The position numbers and the translations under genes are program-made. From the NCBI GenBank assembly GCA_033762295.1, contig JANRLW010000120.1, forward strand, positions 1 to 18,235: a DNA stretch of 18,235 nt. Reading direction: 5' to 3'. The notes beneath the pieces are model-generated. The model saw only the letters and a list, made by a program, of their open reading frames with translations, did not search any database and was not told the origin of the DNA. The DNA comes from Capsulimonadales bacterium (GTDB lineage Bacteria > Armatimonadota > Armatimonadia > Armatimonadales > Armatimonadaceae). Of this stretch, positions 2,141-13,459 are shown in pieces (the first letter of the stretch is position 1; each line of letters starts with the position of its first letter).

Positions 2141-5100
2141 ATGCCCATCCTCATGCAGTTCGATCTTTCGACGCATCCGACGCGTTTCCCGATCAGTCGG
2201 GTCCTTTCGGTAACCGCCCTGATTTTCGGGATGAACGCCGTGGCGTTCGCCCAGAACCCGCCGCCCGCACCGAAGGGAACCCCGCAAAACGCCCCCGCCG
2301 TGACGCAACCCGCTGCCAAAACCGTGCTTGTTTACCGGGCGCAGGCGGGACAGGTTCGCAAAGGGCGTGGCATGGCCAGTCTGACGCTCTCCCCCGGCGG
2401 ACAGAAAGTTTCTCTGGACATTCGGGAAAGCAGCAAACAGACCTACAAAAGCGTCGCACCGAACGGTGACATCACCTATGAGGAGACCACCGAATCCTCC
2501 GAAACCCTGGTGAACGGACGAAAACCCGAAACCCCGGAAGAAGATCAGAACAAGGATGTCAATACGATCACGATCCGCCCGAACGGAATGCTCGTCTCCT
2601 ATACCTCCACCAAAGAGGATAAGGACGACCTGAAGTTTCAGGGCCGCCTGTACTACGCGACCAATATCGTCTTTTCCGAGAAACCGGTCGGCAAGGGCGA
2701 CAAATGGACCGTCGATATCAAGCCGAATGAGGACCTCGGAGTTCGCGCGTCCAAAATCGAATACGAAGTGGTCGATACCAAACGGATCAACGATACCGAC
2801 ACCGTCATGATCCGTTTCTCCTTCGCCGAGAACACGTCCGGCGGCATCTCCAGCAAAGGCAACCTCCTGATCGAGGCCAATTCCGGCGATACCCTCTCCG
2901 CCGATATCAATATCGAAGGCGTTCCTCTCGGACCGCCCGGACAGGAAACCCCCGCCACCGGGAAACTGATCACCGAACGGGTGGAGGGCGGCCCGCTCCC
3001 CGGCGCGAAGAATGTCGCCGCCGCCCGGACCGAGAAGAAAGATAAAACCATCGATGAAACGGTGAAGGATTTCGAGAAGATGCCCGGAATCCTCACCCTT
3101 TACCGGAAGAAGGAATCCAATCGGGAGACCATCTACCTCGAGATTCCCGAGGCGAAACTGGACAAGCCGTATTTCCTGCAGGTGACCGCCGCCACCGGGA
3201 CGGGTCAGGAAATCATTGCCGGAGACGCGATCAACGATATTGTCTTCAAATTCTCGCGCAACGGCGACGATAAACTTCTGTTGATCACTCCCAACTGGCA
3301 GAACCAGGCCGACCCGACGACCCCGATCGGCAAAGCGGTCGAACGATCCTTCTCCGAAAGCTACCTCCAGTCGTTCAAGATCGAGGCGAAACAGCCCGAA
3401 CGGAAATCGCTACTGATCGATATCTCCGACCTGTTCCGGTCCGACTTCGCACAGATCACGCGGGCGCTGAGCGGTGGGGACGGTCTCGCGGGGCTTCTCG
3501 GAATGCCGTCCGGCGGCGGCGCGGGACTTGACCGCGAAAAAACCTATATCCGGTCGATCAAGAACCTCCCCGAAAACCTGGTCGTCTTTACCCAGTACCA
3601 CTTTCTGCGCGGTGGACGCGTCGCTCGTGGCGCCTCCGCGCCGGCGGACCCCCGGAGCCTTCCACTGGTGGTTGCCTACAACCTGATCGCGCTGCCCAAC
3701 GACGAAAATCTGCGGCCTACCAACGGTTACGTCCCCCGCAAAGCCGATCCGCGCGTCGGTTACTTCACGACGGAGTACTTCGACTACACCGACGACACCC
3801 GGGACGAGTTCATCAACCGCTACATCACCCGCTGGGATCTTCGCAAAAAGGACCCGAACGCTCCCCTTTCCGAACCGGAAAAACCCATCGTCTTCTGGCT
3901 TGACAATGCGATCCCCACGCAATATCGGGAAGTCACCCGCCGAGCCATCCTCGTCTGGAACAAAGCGTTCGAAAAAATCGGGTTCAAGGACGCCATCCGC
4001 GTCGAGCAGATGCCCGACAAACCCGATTTCGACCATGCGGACCTTCGTTACAATGTCGTTCGCTGGGTCGTGACGCCGCCGGACTCCCCCCGCAACGGCG
4101 TTGCGGTCGGTCAACTGCGCGCCAACCCGCTGACCGGGCAGATTCTGAATGCCGCCGTATCGATCGACGCCGAGTGGACGCACTACTCGCGAATTTTGCA
4201 CCGCAACCTGATCGACCCCGCCGCCCGGTTCCGGGAAGGCGCGAACCTTGATATGGAAGAAGCCCTTTCGGGCGTCGTTCCCGTGTCCGAGGAACTGGCC
4301 GCGCGTATCGCCCGCCGACGCAGCGGAGCGGACGCCCGCCGGTGCGAGATTTCCGCCGGTCTCGGTGAGAAAGCCGTCTTCGGCCTGATGGCGCTCGACC
4401 TCTCGGAACCCGCCGGTCTGACACCGGCGCGGGAAAAGGACTACACCGAGCAGCTTCTTCTGGAAACCGTCACGCATGAGATCGGACACGTCCTCGGCCT
4501 GACACATAACTTCATCGCCTCGACGCAATTGACCCTGGAGCAGTTGAAGAACCCGCAGGTGGTCCGCGAGCAGGGAATCAGCGCGTCGGTGATGGACTAC
4601 AACAACTTCAATATCTCGGCGATCGGCGCGCCCGGAGTCGATTTCTACTCCCAGACCGTCGGCGTCTACGACCTCTGGGCCATCCGCTACGGCTACTCGA
4701 CCTTCGCTCCCGGCGCCGAGACCGCCGGCCTGAAGGAAATCGCGTCCCAGAGCAACCGTCCGGGACACGCCTACGAAGAGGACATCACCGCGTTCATCGG
4801 ACTCGATCCGCGCGTCGTTCAGTACGACATTTCGGGTCAGCCCCTCGATTACTGGGAGCGCATGCTTCAGCTTTCCCGACGGCTGATCCTGACCCTCGAT
4901 GCCCGCGAACCGAAAATGGGCGAATCCTACTGGGAGTTCACCAAACGCCTGAACCTCCTGCTCGGGCAGTATGCACGGGCGGCGGGCGTCACCTCCCGGT
5001 TCATCGGCGGAATCCGACTGAACCGGAACCACCGGGGCGACGCCAACGAACAGGCGAATACGCTTCCGGTCAGCGTTGCCGACCAGAAGCGCGCACTCAA

Positions 5101-5758
5101 CCTGTTGAACACCTACGTCTTTGCGCCGACCGCCATGACGCTGCCCGAACGGTACTACGGCCATCTCACCAACGACCCGTATAATCCCTCCTTCTCCCAG
5201 GACCAGCCGATCGGCGACGCAATCTCCAACGTTCAGACCAGCGCCGTGCGCCGCGTTTTCGCGCCGTCGGTGCTTCGTCGGCTGCAAAACGCCGAGTTCA
5301 AGATGGGAGAGGGAAGCAGCAAAGCACTGACCCTCCCCACCCTGTTCGACAGCGTGCGCGATAACATCTGGGCCGAGGTCCGGACGGTTGCCGTAACCCG
5401 TGTGGCCGCCGTACGATCGGTCCCCCCGGCGACCAGAGCAACGCCGATCCGTATTCCGCTCCTGCGCCGACAGCTCCAGAGAGCCTACCTCGACACCATG
5501 ATCGATATGGCGACCAAACCGACCGGTGCGCCGGACGACGCCCGGATGCTTGCCTGGGAACAGTTGCGGCAGATGAAAACGCGACTCCTCGCCGCCCGAA
5601 CCGCACCGACCGCCGACGAGTACACGCGTCTGCACCTGCGCGACTCCCTGGACAAGATAAACCGGGCTCTGGAAGCCAAACTGACCCTCGGCGCAGCGAC
5701 CCCTTCCGGTTCGGACTCGAACCTTCTGCGAATGCTTCTCGGCGGAAAAGGACCGTAG
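2141..5758 (+). CDS. Secreted zinc-dependent metalloprotease (metzincin; EcxA-like, DUF5117/DUF4953-type architecture) with an extra N-terminal domain
   Basis: Signal-peptide-like N-terminus ending AVAFA-Q, HEIGHVLGLTH zinc motif (4475-4507), SVMDY Met-turn, family motifs PRKADPRVGYF, KPIVFWLD and GVYDLWAIRYGY. Start is ambiguous between ATG 2141 and ATG 2153. Confidence 0.88.
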   Translation: MPILMQFDLSTHPTRFPISRVLSVTALIFGMNAVAFAQNPPPAPKGTPQNAPAVTQPAAKTVLVYRAQAGQVRKGRGMASLTLSPGGQKVSLDIRESSKQTYKSVAPNGDITYEETTESSETLVNGRKPETPEEDQNKDVNTITIRPNGMLVSYTSTKEDKDDLKFQGRLYYATNIVFSEKPVGKGDKWTVDIKPNEDLGVRASKIEYEVVDTKRINDTDTVMIRFSFAENTSGGISSKGNLLIEANSGDTLSADINIEGVPLGPPGQETPATGKLITERVEGGPLPGAKNVAAARTEKKDKTIDETVKDFEKMPGILTLYRKKESNRETIYLEIPEAKLDKPYFLQVTAATGTGQEIIAGDAINDIVFKFSRNGDDKLLLITPNWQNQADPTTPIGKAVERSFSESYLQSFKIEAKQPERKSLLIDISDLFRSDFAQITRALSGGDGLAGLLGMPSGGGAGLDREKTYIRSIKNLPENLVVFTQYHFLRGGRVARGASAPADPRSLPLVVAYNLIALPNDENLRPTNGYVPRKADPRVGYFTTEYFDYTDDTRDEFINRYITRWDLRKKDPNAPLSEPEKPIVFWLDNAIPTQYREVTRRAILVWNKAFEKIGFKDAIRVEQMPDKPDFDHADLRYNVVRWVVTPPDSPRNGVAVGQLRANPLTGQILNAAVSIDAEWTHYSRILHRNLIDPAARFREGANLDMEEALSGVVPVSEELAARIARRRSGADARRCEISAGLGEKAVFGLMALDLSEPAGLTPAREKDYTEQLLLETVTHEIGHVLGLTHNFIASTQLTLEQLKNPQVVREQGISASVMDYNNFNISAIGAPGVDFYSQTVGVYDLWAIRYGYSTFAPGAETAGLKEIASQSNRPGHAYEEDITAFIGLDPRVVQYDISGQPLDYWERMLQLSRRLILTLDAREPKMGESYWEFTKRLNLLLGQYARAAGVTSRFIGGIRLNRNHRGDANEQANTLPVSVADQKRALNLLNTYVFAPTAMTLPERYYGHLTNDPYNPSFSQDQPIGDAISNVQTSAVRRVFAPSVLRRLQNAEFKMGEGSSKALTLPTLFDSVRDNIWAEVRTVAVTRVAAVRSVPPATRATPIRIPLLRRQLQRAYLDTMIDMATKPTGAPDDARMLAWEQLRQMKTRLLAARTAPTADEYTRLHLRDSLDKINRALEAKLTLGAATPSGSDSNLLRMLLGGKGP

Positions 5759-5795: not shown

Positions 5796-5938
5796 GAACG
5801 CCATAAGATGCCCCGGCTGTTTCCAAAAAGAAGGGAAACCCGCGACCGGCTCCCTGACTCTTGACTATTGTTCGTATGTTTGCCTCCCCGCAGTCACGTG
5901 GCGTACCGCGACCGACCTGCCCGAGGCGAGGAGGGTAC

Positions 5939-6643
5939 GTGTTACAAAAGGGATTCGAGTTTCTTCTGCGCGGCGGCTGGATCATGTGGCCGCTGTTTGT
6001 GTGCGCCATTCTGTCCGTCGCTGTGATGATCGAACGCACCTGGGTCCTGCGTCGCCAGGAACGGGAGGCGGACACGGCATCCGAACGCGTTCTCCACGCG
6101 CTTCGGCAGGGGAACGCCGAAAATGCCCTCACGGAAGCCCGGAAATCGAACGGCGCGGTCGGCAAGGTGCTGGCCGCCGGACTGTCGCGGCGGAGTCAGG
6201 GATCGGAAGCGGTCGAACAGGCCATGCAGGCCGCCGGCCTCCGCCAGTTGCGCGTGCTCAATGAACGCCTCGGGTGGCTCGATACCATCATTACCATGGC
6301 GCCGCTCCTCGGACTGCTGGGAACCGTCACGGGCATGATCAGTGCGTTTCAGGTCGTCGCCACCGCCAGCGGCGCGTCCGCCGCTCCCGCCATTACCGGG
6401 GGCGTCGCCGAGGCCCTTATCGCCACCGCCACCGGCCTCGCGATCGCCGTCGCAACCCTCCCGGTTTATAACCATCTCACCGAAAAGGTGAAGGAACTGA
6501 CCAACGACATGGAGGCGGCGGCGACCGAAACCCAAAGTCTGCTGGCCGGACTGCCGAACGTCGATGCCGAAGCCGCCTCGCAGGACGGATCGGCGGCTTT
6601 TCCGGAGGAGGCGATCCGTGCGTCTGCCACAGCAACCCGCTAG
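5939..6643 (+). CDS. exbB: MotA/TolQ/ExbB proton channel family protein
   Basis: GGWIMWPL in TM1, APLLGLLGTVTGMISAF in TM2 and GGVAEALIATATGL in TM3, with the conserved Thr/Glu/Thr channel residues. GTG start at 5939 follows a GAGGAGG SD. Confidence 0.93.
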   Translation: MLQKGFEFLLRGGWIMWPLFVCAILSVAVMIERTWVLRRQEREADTASERVLHALRQGNAENALTEARKSNGAVGKVLAAGLSRRSQGSEAVEQAMQAAGLRQLRVLNERLGWLDTIITMAPLLGLLGTVTGMISAFQVVATASGASAAPAITGGVAEALIATATGLAIAVATLPVYNHLTEKVKELTNDMEAAATETQSLLAGLPNVDAEAASQDGSAAFPEEAIRASATATR

Positions 6644-7049
6644 AAAAGGGCGCATCGAGATCATTCCCATGATCGACGCCATCTTCTTCCTGCTGGTCTT
6701 CTTTATCATGACCAGCCTTTCCATGATCCGGCTGGAAACGCATGGCGCGACACTGCCCGGCAGCCGGACGACCGTCGCCCAGTCCCTCACCGGCGACCGA
6801 CTGGTCGTCGTTCTTCGGCGGGATCAGGCGATCTTCGTCGATAAGAACCCGGCCAGCGAAGCCGATGTTTTGCGGATTGTCCGTGAACGGGTCGCCGCCA
6901 CGCCGGACCTGCCCGTCCTTCTCACCGCCGACCGGGAAGCCGATGTCACCCGGTTTTTACGACTCTTCGACCTGGTCAAACAGGCCGATGCCCGGAATGT
7001 CATCGTCGCCACCGAACTGACCCCGTCCGCCCCGACACGAGGCAACTGA
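6618..7049 (+). CDS. exbD: ExbD/TolR family biopolymer transporter (copy 1)
   Basis: IEIIPMIDAIFFLLVFF TM motif with the essential Asp and a C-terminal LTADREA motif. GTG start at 6618 follows GGAGGAGG and overlaps the end of exbB. Confidence 0.92.
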   Translation: MRLPQQPARKGRIEIIPMIDAIFFLLVFFIMTSLSMIRLETHGATLPGSRTTVAQSLTGDRLVVVLRRDQAIFVDKNPASEADVLRIVRERVAATPDLPVLLTADREADVTRFLRLFDLVKQADARNVIVATELTPSAPTRGN

Positions 7050-7549
7050 TGCGCCTGCCGAAAACGCCGCCGAAACGCGCCCGAATCGAAATCGTGCCGA
7101 TGATCGACGCGATCTTCTTTCTGCTCGTTTTCTTTATGTACAGTTCGCTTTCGATGGTCAAACTCAACGGTCTTCCCGTCGCGCTACCCCAGGTGCCCGG
7201 CAGCGGAACCCCGAGGCCCGGCATCGCAAAGGAGGCCCCGCACCTCCTGGTCGCTTTACGTTCCGACGGGTCCCGTACCGTGCGCGGCAACCCCGTCGCC
7301 GACACCGATCTCCTCGCTGCCGTGCGCAACTACCTGAACGAAAAACCCGAGACGCTCGTGGTACTGCAGGCCGAAAAAGGAAGCGGCATTCAGGACCTTG
7401 TCTCCGTCATGGACGCGCTGAATACCCTTCGCCTCGCCGATGGTCGGACACCTGCCATCCTCGTCGCCACTGAGGCCGTCACACGACCGGACCGGGCGGT
7501 GGCCGCTCCCGGAAACCCAACCGGGCCGATCCAAGGACCGAAACCATGA
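7049..7549 (+). CDS. exbD: ExbD/TolR family biopolymer transporter (copy 2)
   Basis: IEIVPMIDAIFFLLVFF motif, periplasmic domain VVLQAEK...LVSVMDAL, and a TGATG overlap with the first exbD. Confidence 0.92.
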   Translation: MRLPKTPPKRARIEIVPMIDAIFFLLVFFMYSSLSMVKLNGLPVALPQVPGSGTPRPGIAKEAPHLLVALRSDGSRTVRGNPVADTDLLAAVRNYLNEKPETLVVLQAEKGSGIQDLVSVMDALNTLRLADGRTPAILVATEAVTRPDRAVAAPGNPTGPIQGPKP

Positions 7550-10500
7550 AAAACTCTCCCCTTTTCAAGGGTTCCATCGCCCTTTCGTTCGTTGTGAACC
7601 TGACCGCCGTGACCGTCCTCGGGTACGCGAAACTCCATGAAACCGTTCCGGCTCTGCCGACCGAGTCGAAGACCTTCGGACCGATCCGCTTCGGTGTGAT
7701 TCATCTTCCCACCGCCACTCCGACACCGAAGATCAGTTCCCCCACACGCCTTTCCGAAGCCATCGCTCGCGGCATTCAGGTCGGTAAGGGCGATGACGAC
7801 GATGACCGACCGGCGTCGATGGCCGATTCGTCCTCCGGGGGAGCGAACGCGAAACCCGGCATCGGACGGGACACCGGTGCCGGACGCAAGGGGAGCGAAG
7901 GAGCCGTCGGTAAGAGCGCGGGCCGGGGGGAGGAGGGCTCCGCCGGGAAGGATCGGACGGCAATCGCGAACAACACCGGCACGGCAACGCGGGAAGCGGC
8001 GAAATCCGGAGCGGCGAACGGCGATCGGTCGAAACCGGAAGAAAGCCGGTCGGTGGCGTCCGGCGAACGGACATCCCGGTCGGATAGGACCCTCCGGCCC
8101 GGCAAAGGCTCCGCCGCCGCGCCCGGTGGAATCCCGCTTACGGAGAATCGGGGGACGCCGCGCGCCGAAACCGCGGCGAGAGGAAATCGACAGGGGAAAG
8201 CGTCGGATAAGGACGGAGCGGAAACCGTCAACGGTCGGGAGGAAGGGGCAGGGGCGACCGAAAAATCCTCCGAAACGACCGCCGGGACCGGCACCTTCGT
8301 CATGCCCCGGGTCGCTCGTATGTGGAGCGTTCCACCCGGACAGCGCATCGTACTGCCCGAAGGCCTCAAACTGACGCTTCCCAAAGAACTGCCCGTTATG
8401 GCGGCGGCTAACCCGCTGTCTCGCGAACAGATCGAACAGTTGCGGAAAATGCTTCAGGGGCAAAATCTCCGCCGTATGCAGGGTCTGACACGGGAACAGC
8501 TCAAACGGATGCTCGCCACGCGCAAGGAATCCGAACGGCTCATCTCCCCGGAACCGGCCTCCGCCCCCGCTGCGGAGCCAACCCCGAAACCGAAGGCGGC
8601 CGCGAAGCGGGACAAACGCTCACCTTCGGAACGGGACCCGAAACCGTCCGTGGCATCGCTTCCGCCCGGTCTGAACTCCCCCTTCCGTTATCGCCCCTGG
8701 AGCCCGGTCTGGCAGCAACGGTACGCTCCTCTGCTGAACCGGGCCACACCCGATCGAACGACGGTCGCCGGACTGGCAGGAAAGGCCGAACGCCCCCCGA
8801 CGCTCTCCCCCGAACCCCGATTCACCGGAGTTCAGGTGGCCCGTGCCGACCGACCGCCGCAGACCGCCGAACCGCCATCGCCGGAAGGAAAAACAAACGG
8901 CACCGGAACGCCCGATCAGACCGGTCCGTCGGGTCAGGCAGGTCAGGCAGGTCAGGTCGCTCAGGCCGGTCAGGCCGGTCAGGCCGGGGACAACAACCGG
9001 AACACGGCTCCGTCCTCGACTTCCGCCACCGGCGCGAATGGCGGACGCCCCTCCGGAAAACCGCAGGGGAACGGCTCGACGGCGGCGGGCGGCGGCAACG
9101 GCGTTCCGATCGATCGGAACGCCGGGGCGAACACCGCGGCGGATGGCGGCAGCGGTTCGGGCAACGCGACGGGTAACGGAACCGGTCAGGCACAGGGAGG
9201 AAAAGGCAACAGTTCCGGTTCCGGCCAGGTCCTCGGCGAGGGACAGGGCAACAACGGTACCGGCGGCGGCAACGGGACGATCAATGCAAATCAGGCCGCC
9301 GGAACCTCCGATGGCCGACAGAACGGTAGCGCCGGGACCGCCTCCGCTCTGGGCGTCGGAGACGGCGCGGCGGGTAGCAACGGCGGAAACAATAACACCG
9401 CCGGTGCCGGGAACGCCGGAAACGGCGGAGAGGGTAAAGGCGGAAACGGCGGAGCGCTCGGAGAGGGCGGTGGCGCCGGGAGCGGAAACGGCGGGGCGGG
9501 TTCCGGGGGCGACACCGGCGGAGGCGGCGGCGAGGGGGGGACCGGCGGAGGCGGCGGAGCCCTCGACGGGTTCGTGGGCGGCGAACTGACCGACAACGGC
9601 GAAGGCATTGCCGGAGAACCCGGCGCGGATAGCGGTGAGGCGAACGGGATCGATACCGGGCATACCCCGGCCGTCGGCGTCCCGCCCAACTTCCCGGAGC
9701 ACAAACACCACCTTCGGAAAGGCATTCCCGGCGCGCTCGTCCTGCCGCCTCTCCCGCCGGTCGGAACCGACAGGGGGCGACCGATCCGCCCGAAGGAGAT
9801 TCAAAGGAGCCGGATCGAGGAACGCGCCGCGCCCCGTGGCGCGACCGATCCGCAGGTAGCCGCACGGGCTGCCGATGCCCGGAAGCCCGTGCCCGATAAC
9901 GCCTCTGCGAAGAAACCGGCCCCGCCCCCGCTCGTGACCGTCGTCGGGTCCGCCAGTCGACGCGGAACCGTTTCGCTCCTCCGACTGCCGAAAGCCGAAG
10001 CGACCACCGGCGAAACGGTCCGATTCCCGGCGGACGCTCCGCTCGCCGCGGTTCCGGCAGGCAGGACGCCGGTCCGCTCCGTCGAGGAATCGGTCGCCCG
10101 TCCCGCACGGCGAACCGCCGCACCTCAGTCGGCGAGTACGGAACGGAAAGAATCGCCGGTCGGTGCCGCACAGGCGCGACAGGAGACCCGGGAACGCAAA
10201 ATCGCCAACAGCAAGGGCATCCGGCAGGGGTCCAAAACGCCGATCCCCCCGACTCCGCTGCCCGACAGCGATGCGGAACTGGGCGACGGTTCGGGGCTTC
10301 GCGGCGAATACTACCTCGGCCGTAACTTTGAACAGTATCAGTTCTCCCGTGCCGACTTCGATCTGGACTTCTTCTGGGGCGCGGACCGCTCCCCCAGTCC
10401 CCGTCTTCCCGTCGGGGCCGACTGGTCCTGCCGATGGACCGGGAAGATCCAGCCGCGCTACACCGACACCTACACGTTCTACGCGGTCGCCGACGACGGC

Positions 10501-10767
10501 GTCCGGGTATGGATCGATTACAAACTGGTCATCGATGACTGGACGCTGCATCCCCTCCTGGAATACTCCGGAACGGTCAAGCTCGAAGCGGGGAAACAGT
10601 ACGATATCCGCGTCGATTACTTCGAAAGCGGTGGGCCGCCGGCCTCTCTCGGCATCTACTGGGAATCGGCGAAACAGGTGAAGGAGTTTATTCCCCAGGA
10701 ATGTTTCTTCTATCCGCTGGCCGGAAGCAAAACGGAACTGGAGAAATATGAAAAGCCCCGCTGGTAA
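7546..10767 (+). CDS. TonB-like membrane-anchored protein with a long low-complexity linker and a C-terminal PA14 domain
   Basis: N-terminal TM (SIALSFVVNLTAVTVLGY), about 860 aa rich in Gly/Ala/Pro/Arg/Asn, and a PA14 domain at about 10282-10716 (GLRGEYY...RWTGKIQPRYTDTYTFYAVADDGVRVWID...LEAGKQYDIRVDYFE). ATGA overlap with exbD copy 2. Confidence 0.82.
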   Translation: MKNSPLFKGSIALSFVVNLTAVTVLGYAKLHETVPALPTESKTFGPIRFGVIHLPTATPTPKISSPTRLSEAIARGIQVGKGDDDDDRPASMADSSSGGANAKPGIGRDTGAGRKGSEGAVGKSAGRGEEGSAGKDRTAIANNTGTATREAAKSGAANGDRSKPEESRSVASGERTSRSDRTLRPGKGSAAAPGGIPLTENRGTPRAETAARGNRQGKASDKDGAETVNGREEGAGATEKSSETTAGTGTFVMPRVARMWSVPPGQRIVLPEGLKLTLPKELPVMAAANPLSREQIEQLRKMLQGQNLRRMQGLTREQLKRMLATRKESERLISPEPASAPAAEPTPKPKAAAKRDKRSPSERDPKPSVASLPPGLNSPFRYRPWSPVWQQRYAPLLNRATPDRTTVAGLAGKAERPPTLSPEPRFTGVQVARADRPPQTAEPPSPEGKTNGTGTPDQTGPSGQAGQAGQVAQAGQAGQAGDNNRNTAPSSTSATGANGGRPSGKPQGNGSTAAGGGNGVPIDRNAGANTAADGGSGSGNATGNGTGQAQGGKGNSSGSGQVLGEGQGNNGTGGGNGTINANQAAGTSDGRQNGSAGTASALGVGDGAAGSNGGNNNTAGAGNAGNGGEGKGGNGGALGEGGGAGSGNGGAGSGGDTGGGGGEGGTGGGGGALDGFVGGELTDNGEGIAGEPGADSGEANGIDTGHTPAVGVPPNFPEHKHHLRKGIPGALVLPPLPPVGTDRGRPIRPKEIQRSRIEERAAPRGATDPQVAARAADARKPVPDNASAKKPAPPPLVTVVGSASRRGTVSLLRLPKAEATTGETVRFPADAPLAAVPAGRTPVRSVEESVARPARRTAAPQSASTERKESPVGAAQARQETRERKIANSKGIRQGSKTPIPPTPLPDSDAELGDGSGLRGEYYLGRNFEQYQFSRADFDLDFFWGADRSPSPRLPVGADWSCRWTGKIQPRYTDTYTFYAVADDGVRVWIDYKLVIDDWTLHPLLEYSGTVKLEAGKQYDIRVDYFESGGPPASLGIYWESAKQVKEFIPQECFFYPLAGSKTELEKYEKPRW
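8932..8985 (+). repeat. In-frame 9-bp tandem repeat, 6 imperfect copies encoding (GQA)n
   Basis: ggtcaggca ggtcaggca ggtcaggtc gctcaggcc ggtcaggcc ggtcaggcc. Confidence 0.85.
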
Positions 10768-13459
10768 GGGCCTGAAGGGGATGCTTCTCCTGCTGACGGC
10801 AGGGGTTTGCGTTCCCGCGCCGGCCCAGGAAACGCCGCGTCCGACCCCCGCGCCCGTGGTCCGTCCGAGGACCGCGCCGGACGGCAACAACGCTCTGATC
10901 GCCGCGATTCGCGACAACGACCCGGTACGCCTCGCCGCCGTTCTGGAACGTGGCGGAAATGTCAACGCCACCGACGCCAACCTTTCCACCCCGCTCATGC
11001 AGGCCGCCGCCGCCGCCGGTCCCGAGGTCGTCCGGCTGCTGGTGGAGAAGGGAGCGGAAGTCCGGGCGCGGGACAAAACCGGCTTTACACCGCTCATCAT
11101 CGCCGCCTACTCCGGAAAGCCCGAGGTCGTCCGCTACCTGCTGGAACGCGGAGCGGACCCGAACGACGCCGATAATGATCGGCGAACGGCCCTGATGGGG
11201 GCCGCCTACTCCGGCCGGGAAGACGTCGCCCTGCGACTTCTCGAAAGCGGCGCGGAAATCAACGCAACCGATAAGGATGGGTTCACCCCGCTGATGGTCG
11301 CGTCCGGAACCAGGAACGCCGCCCTCGTTCGACTGCTCCTCGACCGGGGCGCGAACATCAATGCGCCTACCCGTTCCGGCTTCACTCCGCTGATGCAGGC
11401 GGCGGGCGCAGGCCAACCCGCGGTCGTTGCCGTGCTCCTGGAACGAGGAGCCGAAGTCAATGCCCGCTCGCAGAAACGCGCCACCGCCCTGCTGGTCGCC
11501 GCCTATGCCGGAAACGCCGAAATCGCCCGGCTGTTGCTCGAACGCGGAGCCACCGTCGAAGTGGCCGATTCCGTGGGTCACACGCCCCTGATCGGAGCCG
11601 CCTACTCCGGAAATGTCGCCATCGCTCGTTCCCTGCTGGATCGGGGAGCCAGTATCAAATCGAAAACGACCGCCGGCCTCGATGCGCTGATGCAAGCCGC
11701 CTATTCCGGACGCCGTGACGTCGCCGCTCTTCTCCTCGCTCGTGGCGCGGCGGTCGATTCACGGACCGTTCGCGGTCTCACTCCCCTGATGCAGGCGGTC
11801 GGCGCAGGAAACGCCACCACCGCCCGGCTCCTCCTCGATTACGGCGCGGATGTCAATGCTGAAGACAGTTCCCGGCAGACACCCGCTGTCTGGGCGCGTA
11901 AACGCGGTCACGAAGAGATGCTGCCTCTGCTGCGCCAGGCCGGTGCCGTGATCGACGGAAAGACCGCTTCCGCTCCCGTCCCGGTGCCGTCCACCACCGC
12001 TCCGTTCTGTCAAAAACAGTTAGCCCTGTCTCCCCCTTCGGTCATCCCGGAAATCCACGGGCCGCACGTCCTGGGGATGTCCCCCGGACGCCCGTTCGTC
12101 TATCGCATTCCGGCGACCGGCAAAGGAAAACTCCTCTTTTCCGCGACGGGACTTCCCGCCGGCGTCCTTCTCGACAAAACGACCGGCATCCTTCGCGGTA
12201 AAATCGCCGCGCCGGGCCGGTACCCGACCGTTCTCAAAGCCGGAAAGGACGGCAAACCGTTTGCACTGACGCTTATCTGCGCGAAAGGAAAGATCGGACA
12301 AACCCCGCCGCTCGGATGGAGCGCCTGGAACCTGTTCGGAGACACGGTCGATTTCGAAAAGGTTCGGGAACAGGCGGATTGGCTGATCCGCTCCGGTCTG
12401 GCCGCGCACGGGTTCAACTACATTCTGCTCGACGACGCCTGGCAGGGCCGCCGCGATCTTCGGACCGGCGAACTGACCGCCAATCAGCGGATGCGCAGCA
12501 TCAAGGCTCTGGCCGATTACCTGCATGCCCGCGGCCTGCGCCTGGGAATCTACTCGTCGCCGAATGAGGAGACCGGCGGTGGCTACACAGGAAGCCAGGG
12601 CCGGGAGGAACAGGATGCCCGAACGTTCGCCGCCTGGGGCGTCGATTACCTGAAATATGACTGGACCGATAACAAACAGGGACGCCTGAACGTCGATCGG
12701 GAAACCGTTATCGCGGCGTTCGCCCGGATGCGCACGGCTCTCGATAAGACCGATCGTGACATCTTCTATGCCATCACTCCGTACGGGTTCGGAGGAGTAC
12801 AGCCGTGGGGCGACCCGCCGGTTTCCGCCAATAGCTGGTGGACCTCCCTTCAGGTCGTCGAAAGCTGGGACGCGATGTCGCGGAACGGCTTCCGCCTGGG
12901 CGTCGGGTTCGGTCAACCCGCCGGTCCCGGCCACTGGAACGACCCCGGATGGCTGCTCGTCGGGAAGATCGGATCGGCAAGCATCAACCCGCACTTCACC
13001 GCACTGACAGCCGACGAACAGAAAACGCAGATCTCCCTCTGGACCGTGGTGGCCGCGCCGTTGATCCTTTCCTGTGACCTGCGGCAACTCGACCCCAATC
13101 GCTTCTTTCCGATCACGACCGCCCTGCTCACCAATGACGAAGTCCTCGCCGTTCACCAGGACGCTCTGGGCAAGCCGGGCGAGCGGATCGGGACGCAGGG
13201 ACGGGCGGAAATCTGGGCGCGTTCCCTCGCCGATGGCACGATCGCGATCGGCCTGTTCAACCGGGGCGACTCCGAACAGAAGGTAACCGTGGATTTCGAA
13301 AGCCTGAAGGAGTGGGACGGCGGGGAACGCACGGGACCGCAGCCGGTTCGCGACCTCTGGTTGCGTCAGGATAAGGGAACGGCCACGGACTCCTTTTCCG
13401 CGTCCGTTCCCGCCCACGGGGTCGTGCTGATCCGCCTGGGAAAGCCGACCACGCCTTAA
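10748..13459 (+). CDS. Secreted ankyrin-repeat / Ig-like (He_PIG) / GH27 alpha-galactosidase-like fusion protein
   Basis: Signal peptide ending VPAPA-Q, 11 ankyrin repeats (10880-11947), He_PIG-like segment (FSATGLPAGVLLDKTTGILRG), GH27 barrel (TPPLGWSAWN, LDDAWQ, GIYSSP, WGVDYLKYD, GHWNDP) and C-terminal beta-sandwich (VRDLW, VPAHGVVL). Confidence 0.9.
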   Translation: MKSPAGKGLKGMLLLLTAGVCVPAPAQETPRPTPAPVVRPRTAPDGNNALIAAIRDNDPVRLAAVLERGGNVNATDANLSTPLMQAAAAAGPEVVRLLVEKGAEVRARDKTGFTPLIIAAYSGKPEVVRYLLERGADPNDADNDRRTALMGAAYSGREDVALRLLESGAEINATDKDGFTPLMVASGTRNAALVRLLLDRGANINAPTRSGFTPLMQAAGAGQPAVVAVLLERGAEVNARSQKRATALLVAAYAGNAEIARLLLERGATVEVADSVGHTPLIGAAYSGNVAIARSLLDRGASIKSKTTAGLDALMQAAYSGRRDVAALLLARGAAVDSRTVRGLTPLMQAVGAGNATTARLLLDYGADVNAEDSSRQTPAVWARKRGHEEMLPLLRQAGAVIDGKTASAPVPVPSTTAPFCQKQLALSPPSVIPEIHGPHVLGMSPGRPFVYRIPATGKGKLLFSATGLPAGVLLDKTTGILRGKIAAPGRYPTVLKAGKDGKPFALTLICAKGKIGQTPPLGWSAWNLFGDTVDFEKVREQADWLIRSGLAAHGFNYILLDDAWQGRRDLRTGELTANQRMRSIKALADYLHARGLRLGIYSSPNEETGGGYTGSQGREEQDARTFAAWGVDYLKYDWTDNKQGRLNVDRETVIAAFARMRTALDKTDRDIFYAITPYGFGGVQPWGDPPVSANSWWTSLQVVESWDAMSRNGFRLGVGFGQPAGPGHWNDPGWLLVGKIGSASINPHFTALTADEQKTQISLWTVVAAPLILSCDLRQLDPNRFFPITTALLTNDEVLAVHQDALGKPGERIGTQGRAEIWARSLADGTIAIGLFNRGDSEQKVTVDFESLKEWDGGERTGPQPVRDLWLRQDKGTATDSFSASVPAHGVVLIRLGKPTTP
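10880..11947 (+). repeat. Ankyrin repeat array (11 units of about 33 aa)
   Basis: Repeated G-x-TPL-xx-AA-x-x-G-...-LL-x-x-GA-x-VN pattern at 33-aa periodicity. Confidence 0.93.

Follow-up and report, generated by a model that had tools for sequence, protein, structure and literature searches.

The stretch of DNA analyzed here (the window; 18,235 nucleotides from a Capsulimonadales bacterium) raises the question of what an ExbB-ExbD motor acts on when the protein encoded in its TonB slot does not end like TonB. That protein, P0001 (7546..10767, + strand), has 1073 aa, which comprise a TonB-type anchor, a D-box-like strand, a low-complexity linker of ~850 aa, and a C-terminal PA14 domain, with no TonB_C. 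Its ATG overlaps the stop codon of exbD2 (ATGA) and is preceded by an AAGGA site. A first-pass annotation of the sequence had proposed that P0001 is a real energy transducer rather than a neighboring membrane protein.

The genes upstream of P0001 encode a proton motor. An exbB/tolQ-type gene (5939..6643, +; PF01618, E=3e-30), for which the longest ORF begins at 5861 and homologs align from the GTG at 5939, is followed by exbD1 (6618..7049, +) and exbD2 (7049..7549, +), which both match PF02472 and encode the transmembrane Asp (PMID in ExbD1). This Asp is invariant in 28/28 ExbD1 and 28/28 ExbD2 sequences, and the equivalents of the channel threonines T148 and T181 of E. coli ExbB are kept in the window and invariant in 20/20 rows, so that the residues expected of a 5:2 proton motor are in place. 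In E. coli, Trp38 and Pro190 of ExbB contact TonB Ser16/His20 and link them to the channel, as described in a section of PMC12215075. Both residues are absent from all 19 lineage ExbBs aligned, including transporter-linked ones, and their loss does not single out the PA14 type. Across the lineage, this loss co-occurs with the change of TonB His to Asn described below, which is relevant to the gating network that has been proposed for Ton motors. In the ExbB alignment, many type-B sequences feature a Pro three residues further on.

Other observations concern the surroundings of the motor. Two different exbB genes occur within one locus at L047, L111, L112, L113, L009, L186, and L198, which suggests heteromeric pentamers. 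One genus (L043, L044, L090) has a gene for a PMT_2 glycosyltransferase-like protein immediately ahead of exbB, and the Thr/Pro-rich linkers encoded at these loci could be glycosylated. In the window, the gene directly upstream of exbB (2141-5758) encodes a secreted protein of the Met-zincin type (DUF4953/DUF5117/DUF5118) that is extended by an additional region at its N-terminus. We rejected this gene as part of the system because such a gene sits beside the motor in 1/23 loci. The product of positions 1-867 has two Clp_N repeats, a C-terminal part unrelated to them, and no ATPase domain. A promoter scan found no sigma-70-type site, and a search of RNA runs listed no match.

P0001 resembles TonB at its N-terminus. 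Residues 10-28 (7573..7629, +) form its sole strong hydrophobic segment (Kyte-Doolittle 1.72 over 19 aa), which leaves ~9 cytoplasmic residues. Neither a lipobox nor an AxA cleavage pattern was found there, which at the level of patterns indicates a single uncleaved transmembrane helix like that of TonB and agrees with the uncleaved anchor that the first-pass annotation had assumed. The motor-binding motif of TonB, Ser-x3-His (or Asn), is present as S14 (7585) and N18 (7597). Translation bears out these positions as they had been annotated, along with P46-I52 (PIRFGVI, 7681-7701), and the E. coli TonB sequence used for that comparison is correct. The full SHLS motif is not kept, with Leu at +7 in 7/15 and Ser at +11 in 2/15 PA14-type anchors; these two positions are described as poorly conserved in Ton (PMC12215075). 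Another claimed likeness to TonB, a Y-x3-H...LP segment, is present in P0001, but Y-x3-H appears in only 2/20 homologs and was rejected as coincidental. Direct BLASTP between E. coli TonB and P0001 residues 1-65 was not significant (8.5 bits, E=50). Therefore, the case cannot rest on that pair, and the motif was tested against relatives.

Loci were gathered from 41 and 401 genomes, GTDB contigs, and metagenomes. The N-terminal part of the P0001 family is encoded by 23 distinct loci, with the window included and with further family loci that are cut at the 5' end standing outside this number; a metagenome scan contributed two added family loci among 79. Taxa named for such contigs are Armatimonadota, Capsulimonadaceae, and Abditibacteriaceae, and because the loci are related, the counts that follow are not independent. 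Asn occupies the His20 position in 24/24 readable family N-termini (the 23 loci and the close homolog P0153), and the residue four positions earlier is Ser in 22 and Ala in 2 of these, which sustains the conservation of S-x3-[HN] that had been put forward as a check, once Ala is admitted at -4. TonB-slot anchors of non-PA14 loci feature Asn in 31/32 cases and His in 1/32, with two further loci dropped from the set as yielding no anchor. The anchor-finding script sought N or H within a hydrophobic segment, so the N/H position in these counts is partly built in, but this holds neither for the preference of N to H nor for the Ser at -4. Two proteins with TonB_C in the host genome (G000), a 641-aa TonB on contig C116 and a second protein on contig C43, also carry S-x3-N, which indicates that Asn is the local form of His20. 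Judged from these sequences, Asn is the normal residue of the lineage and no special feature of P0001. The statement in the first-pass annotation that Asn can replace TonB His20 agrees with bioRxiv 10.1101/2022.09.26.509584, a passage of which describes full replaceability as a result of Swayne and Postle (2011).

The anchor was also scored with a PSSM built solely from the 32 TonB-slot anchors of non-PA14 loci. P0001 scored 8.2 bits, compared to 10.8 for E. coli TonB, and ranked 11th of 26,868 six-frame ORFs in the host genome. Its score was reached by 6/44,358 TM-like windows, which suggests that the resemblance is above chance, though modest. Scores of PA14-type anchors ranged from -3.4 to 37.7, with 2/15 below zero. 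As a control, exb genes or the anchor motif were found in 0/61 other PA14 loci from the same search.

The strand that follows the anchor was compared to the D-box, which is described as hydrophobic-polar-hydrophobic-polar-hydrophobic-hydrophobic-polar between prolines (excerpt of PMC10907165). Within residues 46-55 of P0001 (7681..7710, +), IRFGVIH fits this Pro-flanked pattern exactly, and thus a D-box-like strand follows the transmembrane segment, as in TonB. The conservation anticipated for this strand stood in part: all ten residues at 46-55 are identical in P0153, though the preceding stretch and flanks have diverged, but the strict Pro-flanked form occurs in just 3/15 PA14-type proteins, along with 0/13 sister TonBs and 1/1091 control ORFs (65/1091 for the core alone). 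A shortened pattern, set after the data were seen, was found in 8/15 PA14-type proteins, 10/13 sister TonBs, and 44/1091 controls, and in 6/6 and 2/13 members of the remaining two of the four classes. When P0001 residues 28-63 were modeled together with the periplasmic domains of ExbD1 and ExbD2, the complex scored 0.09 against a mark of 0.32, which speaks neither for nor against binding.

Among the PA14-type loci, exbD lies directly upstream in 22/23; the exception, L241, is an orphan that encodes a 309-aa protein in which a sister-type TonB N-terminus and a Pro-rich linker run straight into PA14. An ExbB tree of 57 rows resolved three clades, one of which (99/95, 32 rows) contains both PA14-linked and TonB_C-linked motors, apart from other Ton motors. 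A single origin of the PA14-linked motors was neither rejected nor demonstrated (AU p=0.62; 18 rows vs 18, with transporter-linked type A rows left out). The sister TonBs, which end in TonB_C, are 250-341 aa long, with a Pfam TonB_C match in 3 of the 4 scanned and homologous ends. A transporter gene adjoins the sister TonB in 10/13 loci, and the other three contigs end inside the TonB gene. By comparison, the PA14-type loci showed no transporter and no TonB_C match in 23/23 fetched stretches of 4-20 kb, and the P0001 C-terminus matched neither PF03544 nor TIGR01352, featuring PA14 instead. Taken together, this motor clade is followed either by a TonB_C-ending TonB and then a TonB-dependent transporter, or by a PA14-ending protein with no transporter nearby. 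The host genome also contains, on contig C116, a separate ordinary Ton locus with a transporter, two exbB-exbD pairs, and the 641-aa TonB with its TonB_C.

The gathered loci displayed additional arrangements. One complete genome (G035) contains three separate exbB-exbD-exbD-PA14 loci (L046, L047, L048) plus seven transporter matches. In the short PA14-type proteins of L238, L240, L048, and L237, the linker has a different conserved, apparently folded insert with Cys residues. On contig C100 of the host genome, the 484-aa product of L058:5168-6619 combines an S-x3-H anchor with a vWA domain at its C-terminus. The 12 kb fetched for this locus contained no exb genes, which makes the protein a candidate orphan vWA-type transducer. 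On contig C43 of the same genome, the 275-aa product of 89843-90667 (-; in L011) begins like a signal sequence, has a body that looks cyclophilin-like by eye, and matches TonB_C at its C-terminus.

The PA14 domain (10282..10720, +; PF07691, E=3e-23) is the sole Pfam match in P0001, at residues 916-1047, and 130 residues of its model reach a pLDDT of 90 or more. The closest PA14 structures are 6QE7 and 6QDI, which are domains of clostridial RsgI proteins, at 40-44% identity. RsgI PA14 domains are described as using a calcium site with an Asp-cis-Asp pair to bind pectin or xylan (PMC6852018, in part). An Asp-Asp pair of P0001, D983-D984 (10492-10497), occupies the calcium/sugar site of solved PA14 lectins and is invariant in 20/20 sequences, and the domain thus has the fold and, by residue identity, the acidic pair of a calcium-dependent lectin. 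By analogy, the ligand of the P0001 PA14 is most likely a glycan bound through calcium. When protein representatives were searched with a profile of the PA14 alignment, the best 150 matches were all multi-PA14 proteins.

The linker between membrane and lectin spans 856 aa (17% Gly, 13% hydrophobic), which far exceeds the need of a periplasm of 15-40 nm. TonBs of 584-1095 aa, which are 2-4x the size of E. coli TonB and may reflect a wide envelope, adjoin transporters in this family (L009, L184-L201), so that a long linker does not disqualify P0001. Two short conserved motifs lie within it, at residues 727-734 (9724..9747, +) and at residues 799-811 (9940..9978, +). The latter, G-S-x-S-x-x-G, was found in 29/30 family sequences, 1/28 TonB_C-type TonBs (a sister), and 68/4226 control ORFs. 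Both were unfolded and not packed on PA14 in a model of residues 699-1073. A conserved internal region (8299..8715, +; residues ~252-324 and 378-390) is confined to long versions accompanied by ankyrin and/or GH27 genes: the region, residues 252-390 in P0001, is present in 11/23 loci, and an ankyrin and/or GH27 gene adjoins all 11. The other 12/23 loci feature neither gene, although L090 is truncated where its contig stops and little sequence is available downstream of L239. The region belongs to no known family; its model is weak (mean pLDDT 63, pTM 0.23) and had no Foldseek match, and ESM Atlas gave no usable match for residues 245-400.

In the long versions, P0001 included, the partner is a secreted ankyrin protein, usually with a GH27 that lacks the acid/base Asp. 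In the window, this protein (10748..13459, +) starts with a stretch that resembles a signal peptide (an assessment made by eye here and elsewhere) and contains ankyrin repeats, a putative Ig domain, and a GH27 fold. GH27 residues were counted on 6F4C, in which we take D130 and D185 to be the catalytic nucleophile and acid/base. The nucleophile Asp is kept (12659), but Gln stands in place of Asp at the acid/base position (12851), and neither the Arg nor the Asp that are conserved at the substrate site remains (the Asp is Gly at 12947). With the nucleophile as the only one of the two catalytic residues of a GH27 alpha-galactosidase, an active alpha-galactosidase downstream of P0001 was rejected. 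Three residues are lost in 14/14 family GH27s: the acid/base Asp (Glu instead in one case), the Arg before it, and the Asp within DPDM. Of these GH27s, 12 adjoin ankyrin or PA14 genes and two lie on other contigs of PA14-type genomes; 18/18 control GH27s, including a second GH27 of the host genome, retain all three. The family GH27s therefore look like glycan-binding pseudoenzymes, as judged by these residues. Several homologs add NPCBM or LamG lectin domains.

These results support the energy-transducer reading of the first-pass annotation through the conserved motif, the lack of a cleavage pattern, and the TonB slot within a motor clade, with transduction and ExbD binding as the inferred parts. 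We conclude that P0001 is probably a TonB/TolA-type force transducer for the upstream ExbB-ExbD1-ExbD2 motor in which a PA14 lectin replaces TonB_C. The anchor would dock on ExbB through S14/N18, and residues 47-53 would pass between the periplasmic domains of ExbD1 and ExbD2. The motor, turned by the flow of protons, would then reel in the long linker, and the force would reach whatever PA14 holds, most likely a calcium-bound glycan. Because the inner-membrane anchor appears uncleaved, PA14 should be periplasmic. For the long versions, the role of an outer-membrane transporter may be taken over by a partner complex in the periplasm, in which the ankyrin protein and the catalytically dead GH27 hold glycan. 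If P0001 is coupled to the motor, then we favor, at about half, a polysaccharide chain being pulled into or through the periplasm; tensioning or release of an envelope glycan comes next, at about a third, and surface adhesion or motility takes the rest. The full proposal is a proton-driven "glycan winch," in which ExbB-ExbD1-ExbD2 reels a lectin-tipped tether and applies force directly to carbohydrate, with help from a dead glycosidase and an ankyrin scaffold and with no TonB-box transporter. This proposal is more tentative, and we consider it somewhat short of an even chance. If true, Armatimonadota could use such a winch to ratchet polysaccharide chains across their envelope, or to power adhesion or movement at the surface.

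Other readings of P0001 were weighed against these data. P0001 could be docked but passive or reversed, such that glycan tension on PA14 gates the proton channel or provides a signal, as in RsgI sensors. The identity of 40-44% to RsgI sensor domains and a floppy 850-aa linker, which seems a poor transmitter of force, are consistent with this possibility, as is the gating by TonB-linker tension proposed in a part of PMC12215075. However, transporter-linked TonBs have long linkers too, and P0001, with its ~9 cytoplasmic residues, contains no anti-sigma domain and was accompanied by no conserved sigma-factor gene among the neighbors scanned, which makes a sensor unlikely. Less probable still, P0001 might energize a TonB-dependent transporter encoded elsewhere, either by gripping its glycan substrate, in the manner of FusB, which binds its substrate directly (PMC7593965, in part), or through an unrecognized strand-binding site. 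At least one transporter is present in the host genome and in 5/5 other PA14-type genomes tested, and carbohydrate-active genes lie near several loci. Yet P0001 lacks TonB_C, a transporter is found in 0/23 PA14 loci, and the one transporter found in the host genome shares its locus with a motor and a TonB of its own.

The reading to which we give the least weight, and which we regard as very improbable, is that P0001 is an ordinary lectin, membrane-anchored or secreted, that is encoded beside exbBD by coincidence and whose TonB-like motifs reflect chance or relics. PA14 is common, with eight matches in the host genome, the pairwise match to E. coli TonB was not significant, and the orphan L241 has no adjacent motor genes. 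On the other hand, the slot and the motifs are kept across several families, the D-box of P0153 is identical though its flanks diverge, and none of the 61 other PA14 hosts carries the anchor motif or exb genes. Within the force-transducer reading, the docking signals of TonB combined with a sugar-binding end suggest, from the sequence, a motor that pulls sugar chains and not a gate. TonB/TolA-type transducers with a known target pull proteins by strand pairing, according to the parts of the literature cited here, and a natural swap within one motor clade, from TonB_C and transporter to lectin and dead glycosidase, points to sugar-pulling motors. A PA14-ended transducer would also provide a simple test bed for motor force, since its lectin offers a handle for tethering to a surface of glycan. 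No prior description of such a transducer appeared among the literature matches listed, from a search that most subscription papers lie outside.

By its sequence, P0001 is like a TonB at the membrane end and falls outside TonB at the C-terminus. It shares with the E. coli TonB-ExbB-ExbD system the Ser-x3-His/Asn anchor, the low-complexity periplasmic linker, and the position after exbB-exbD, with the D-box-like strand ~29 residues after the anchor compared to 25 in E. coli. Unlike E. coli TonB, it features PA14 in place of TonB_C, a linker of ~850 aa, and no transporter in the locus, and its motor has two different ExbDs and lacks Trp38/Pro190. TolA of Tol-Pal has the same anchor type and likewise a target other than a transporter, but no TolA-III/TonB-like domain was detected in P0001 and no tolB or pal among the neighbors scanned. 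The patchy spread of the family also argues against an essential envelope role like that of TolA: at E<=1e-45, at most 23/401 genomes match, a number that includes a generic PA14 protein without exb genes (G038) and an unchecked match (G241). In FusB, as is proposed here for P0001, a TonB homolog holds on to the cargo itself, but the substrate of FusB is a protein and FusB binds the TonB box of its transporter as well (sections of PMC7593965), whereas P0001 lacks TonB_C. RsgI3 and RsgI4 of cellulolytic clostridia (6QE7, 6QDI) similarly display PA14 with an Asp-Asp calcium site on a membrane-anchored linker, but with tandem PA14 domains, a cytoplasmic anti-sigma domain, and no ExbBD motor (PMC6852018, in part). 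The vWA force transducers, a predicted family of unknown function, differ from P0001 in having a C-terminal vWA rather than PA14 fold, His rather than Asn, TPR partners rather than ankyrin and dead GH27, and another lineage, and PA14 has no mention in the text and one supplement of PMC12204202. They match P0001 in their SHLS-type transmembrane motif, predicted motor box, disordered linker, and non-TonB C-terminal domain, and their genes often come after one tolQ-like and two different tolR-like genes (parts of PMC12204202), as P0001 follows exbB-exbD-exbD. By analogy, this predicted vWA family is the nearest precedent for P0001.
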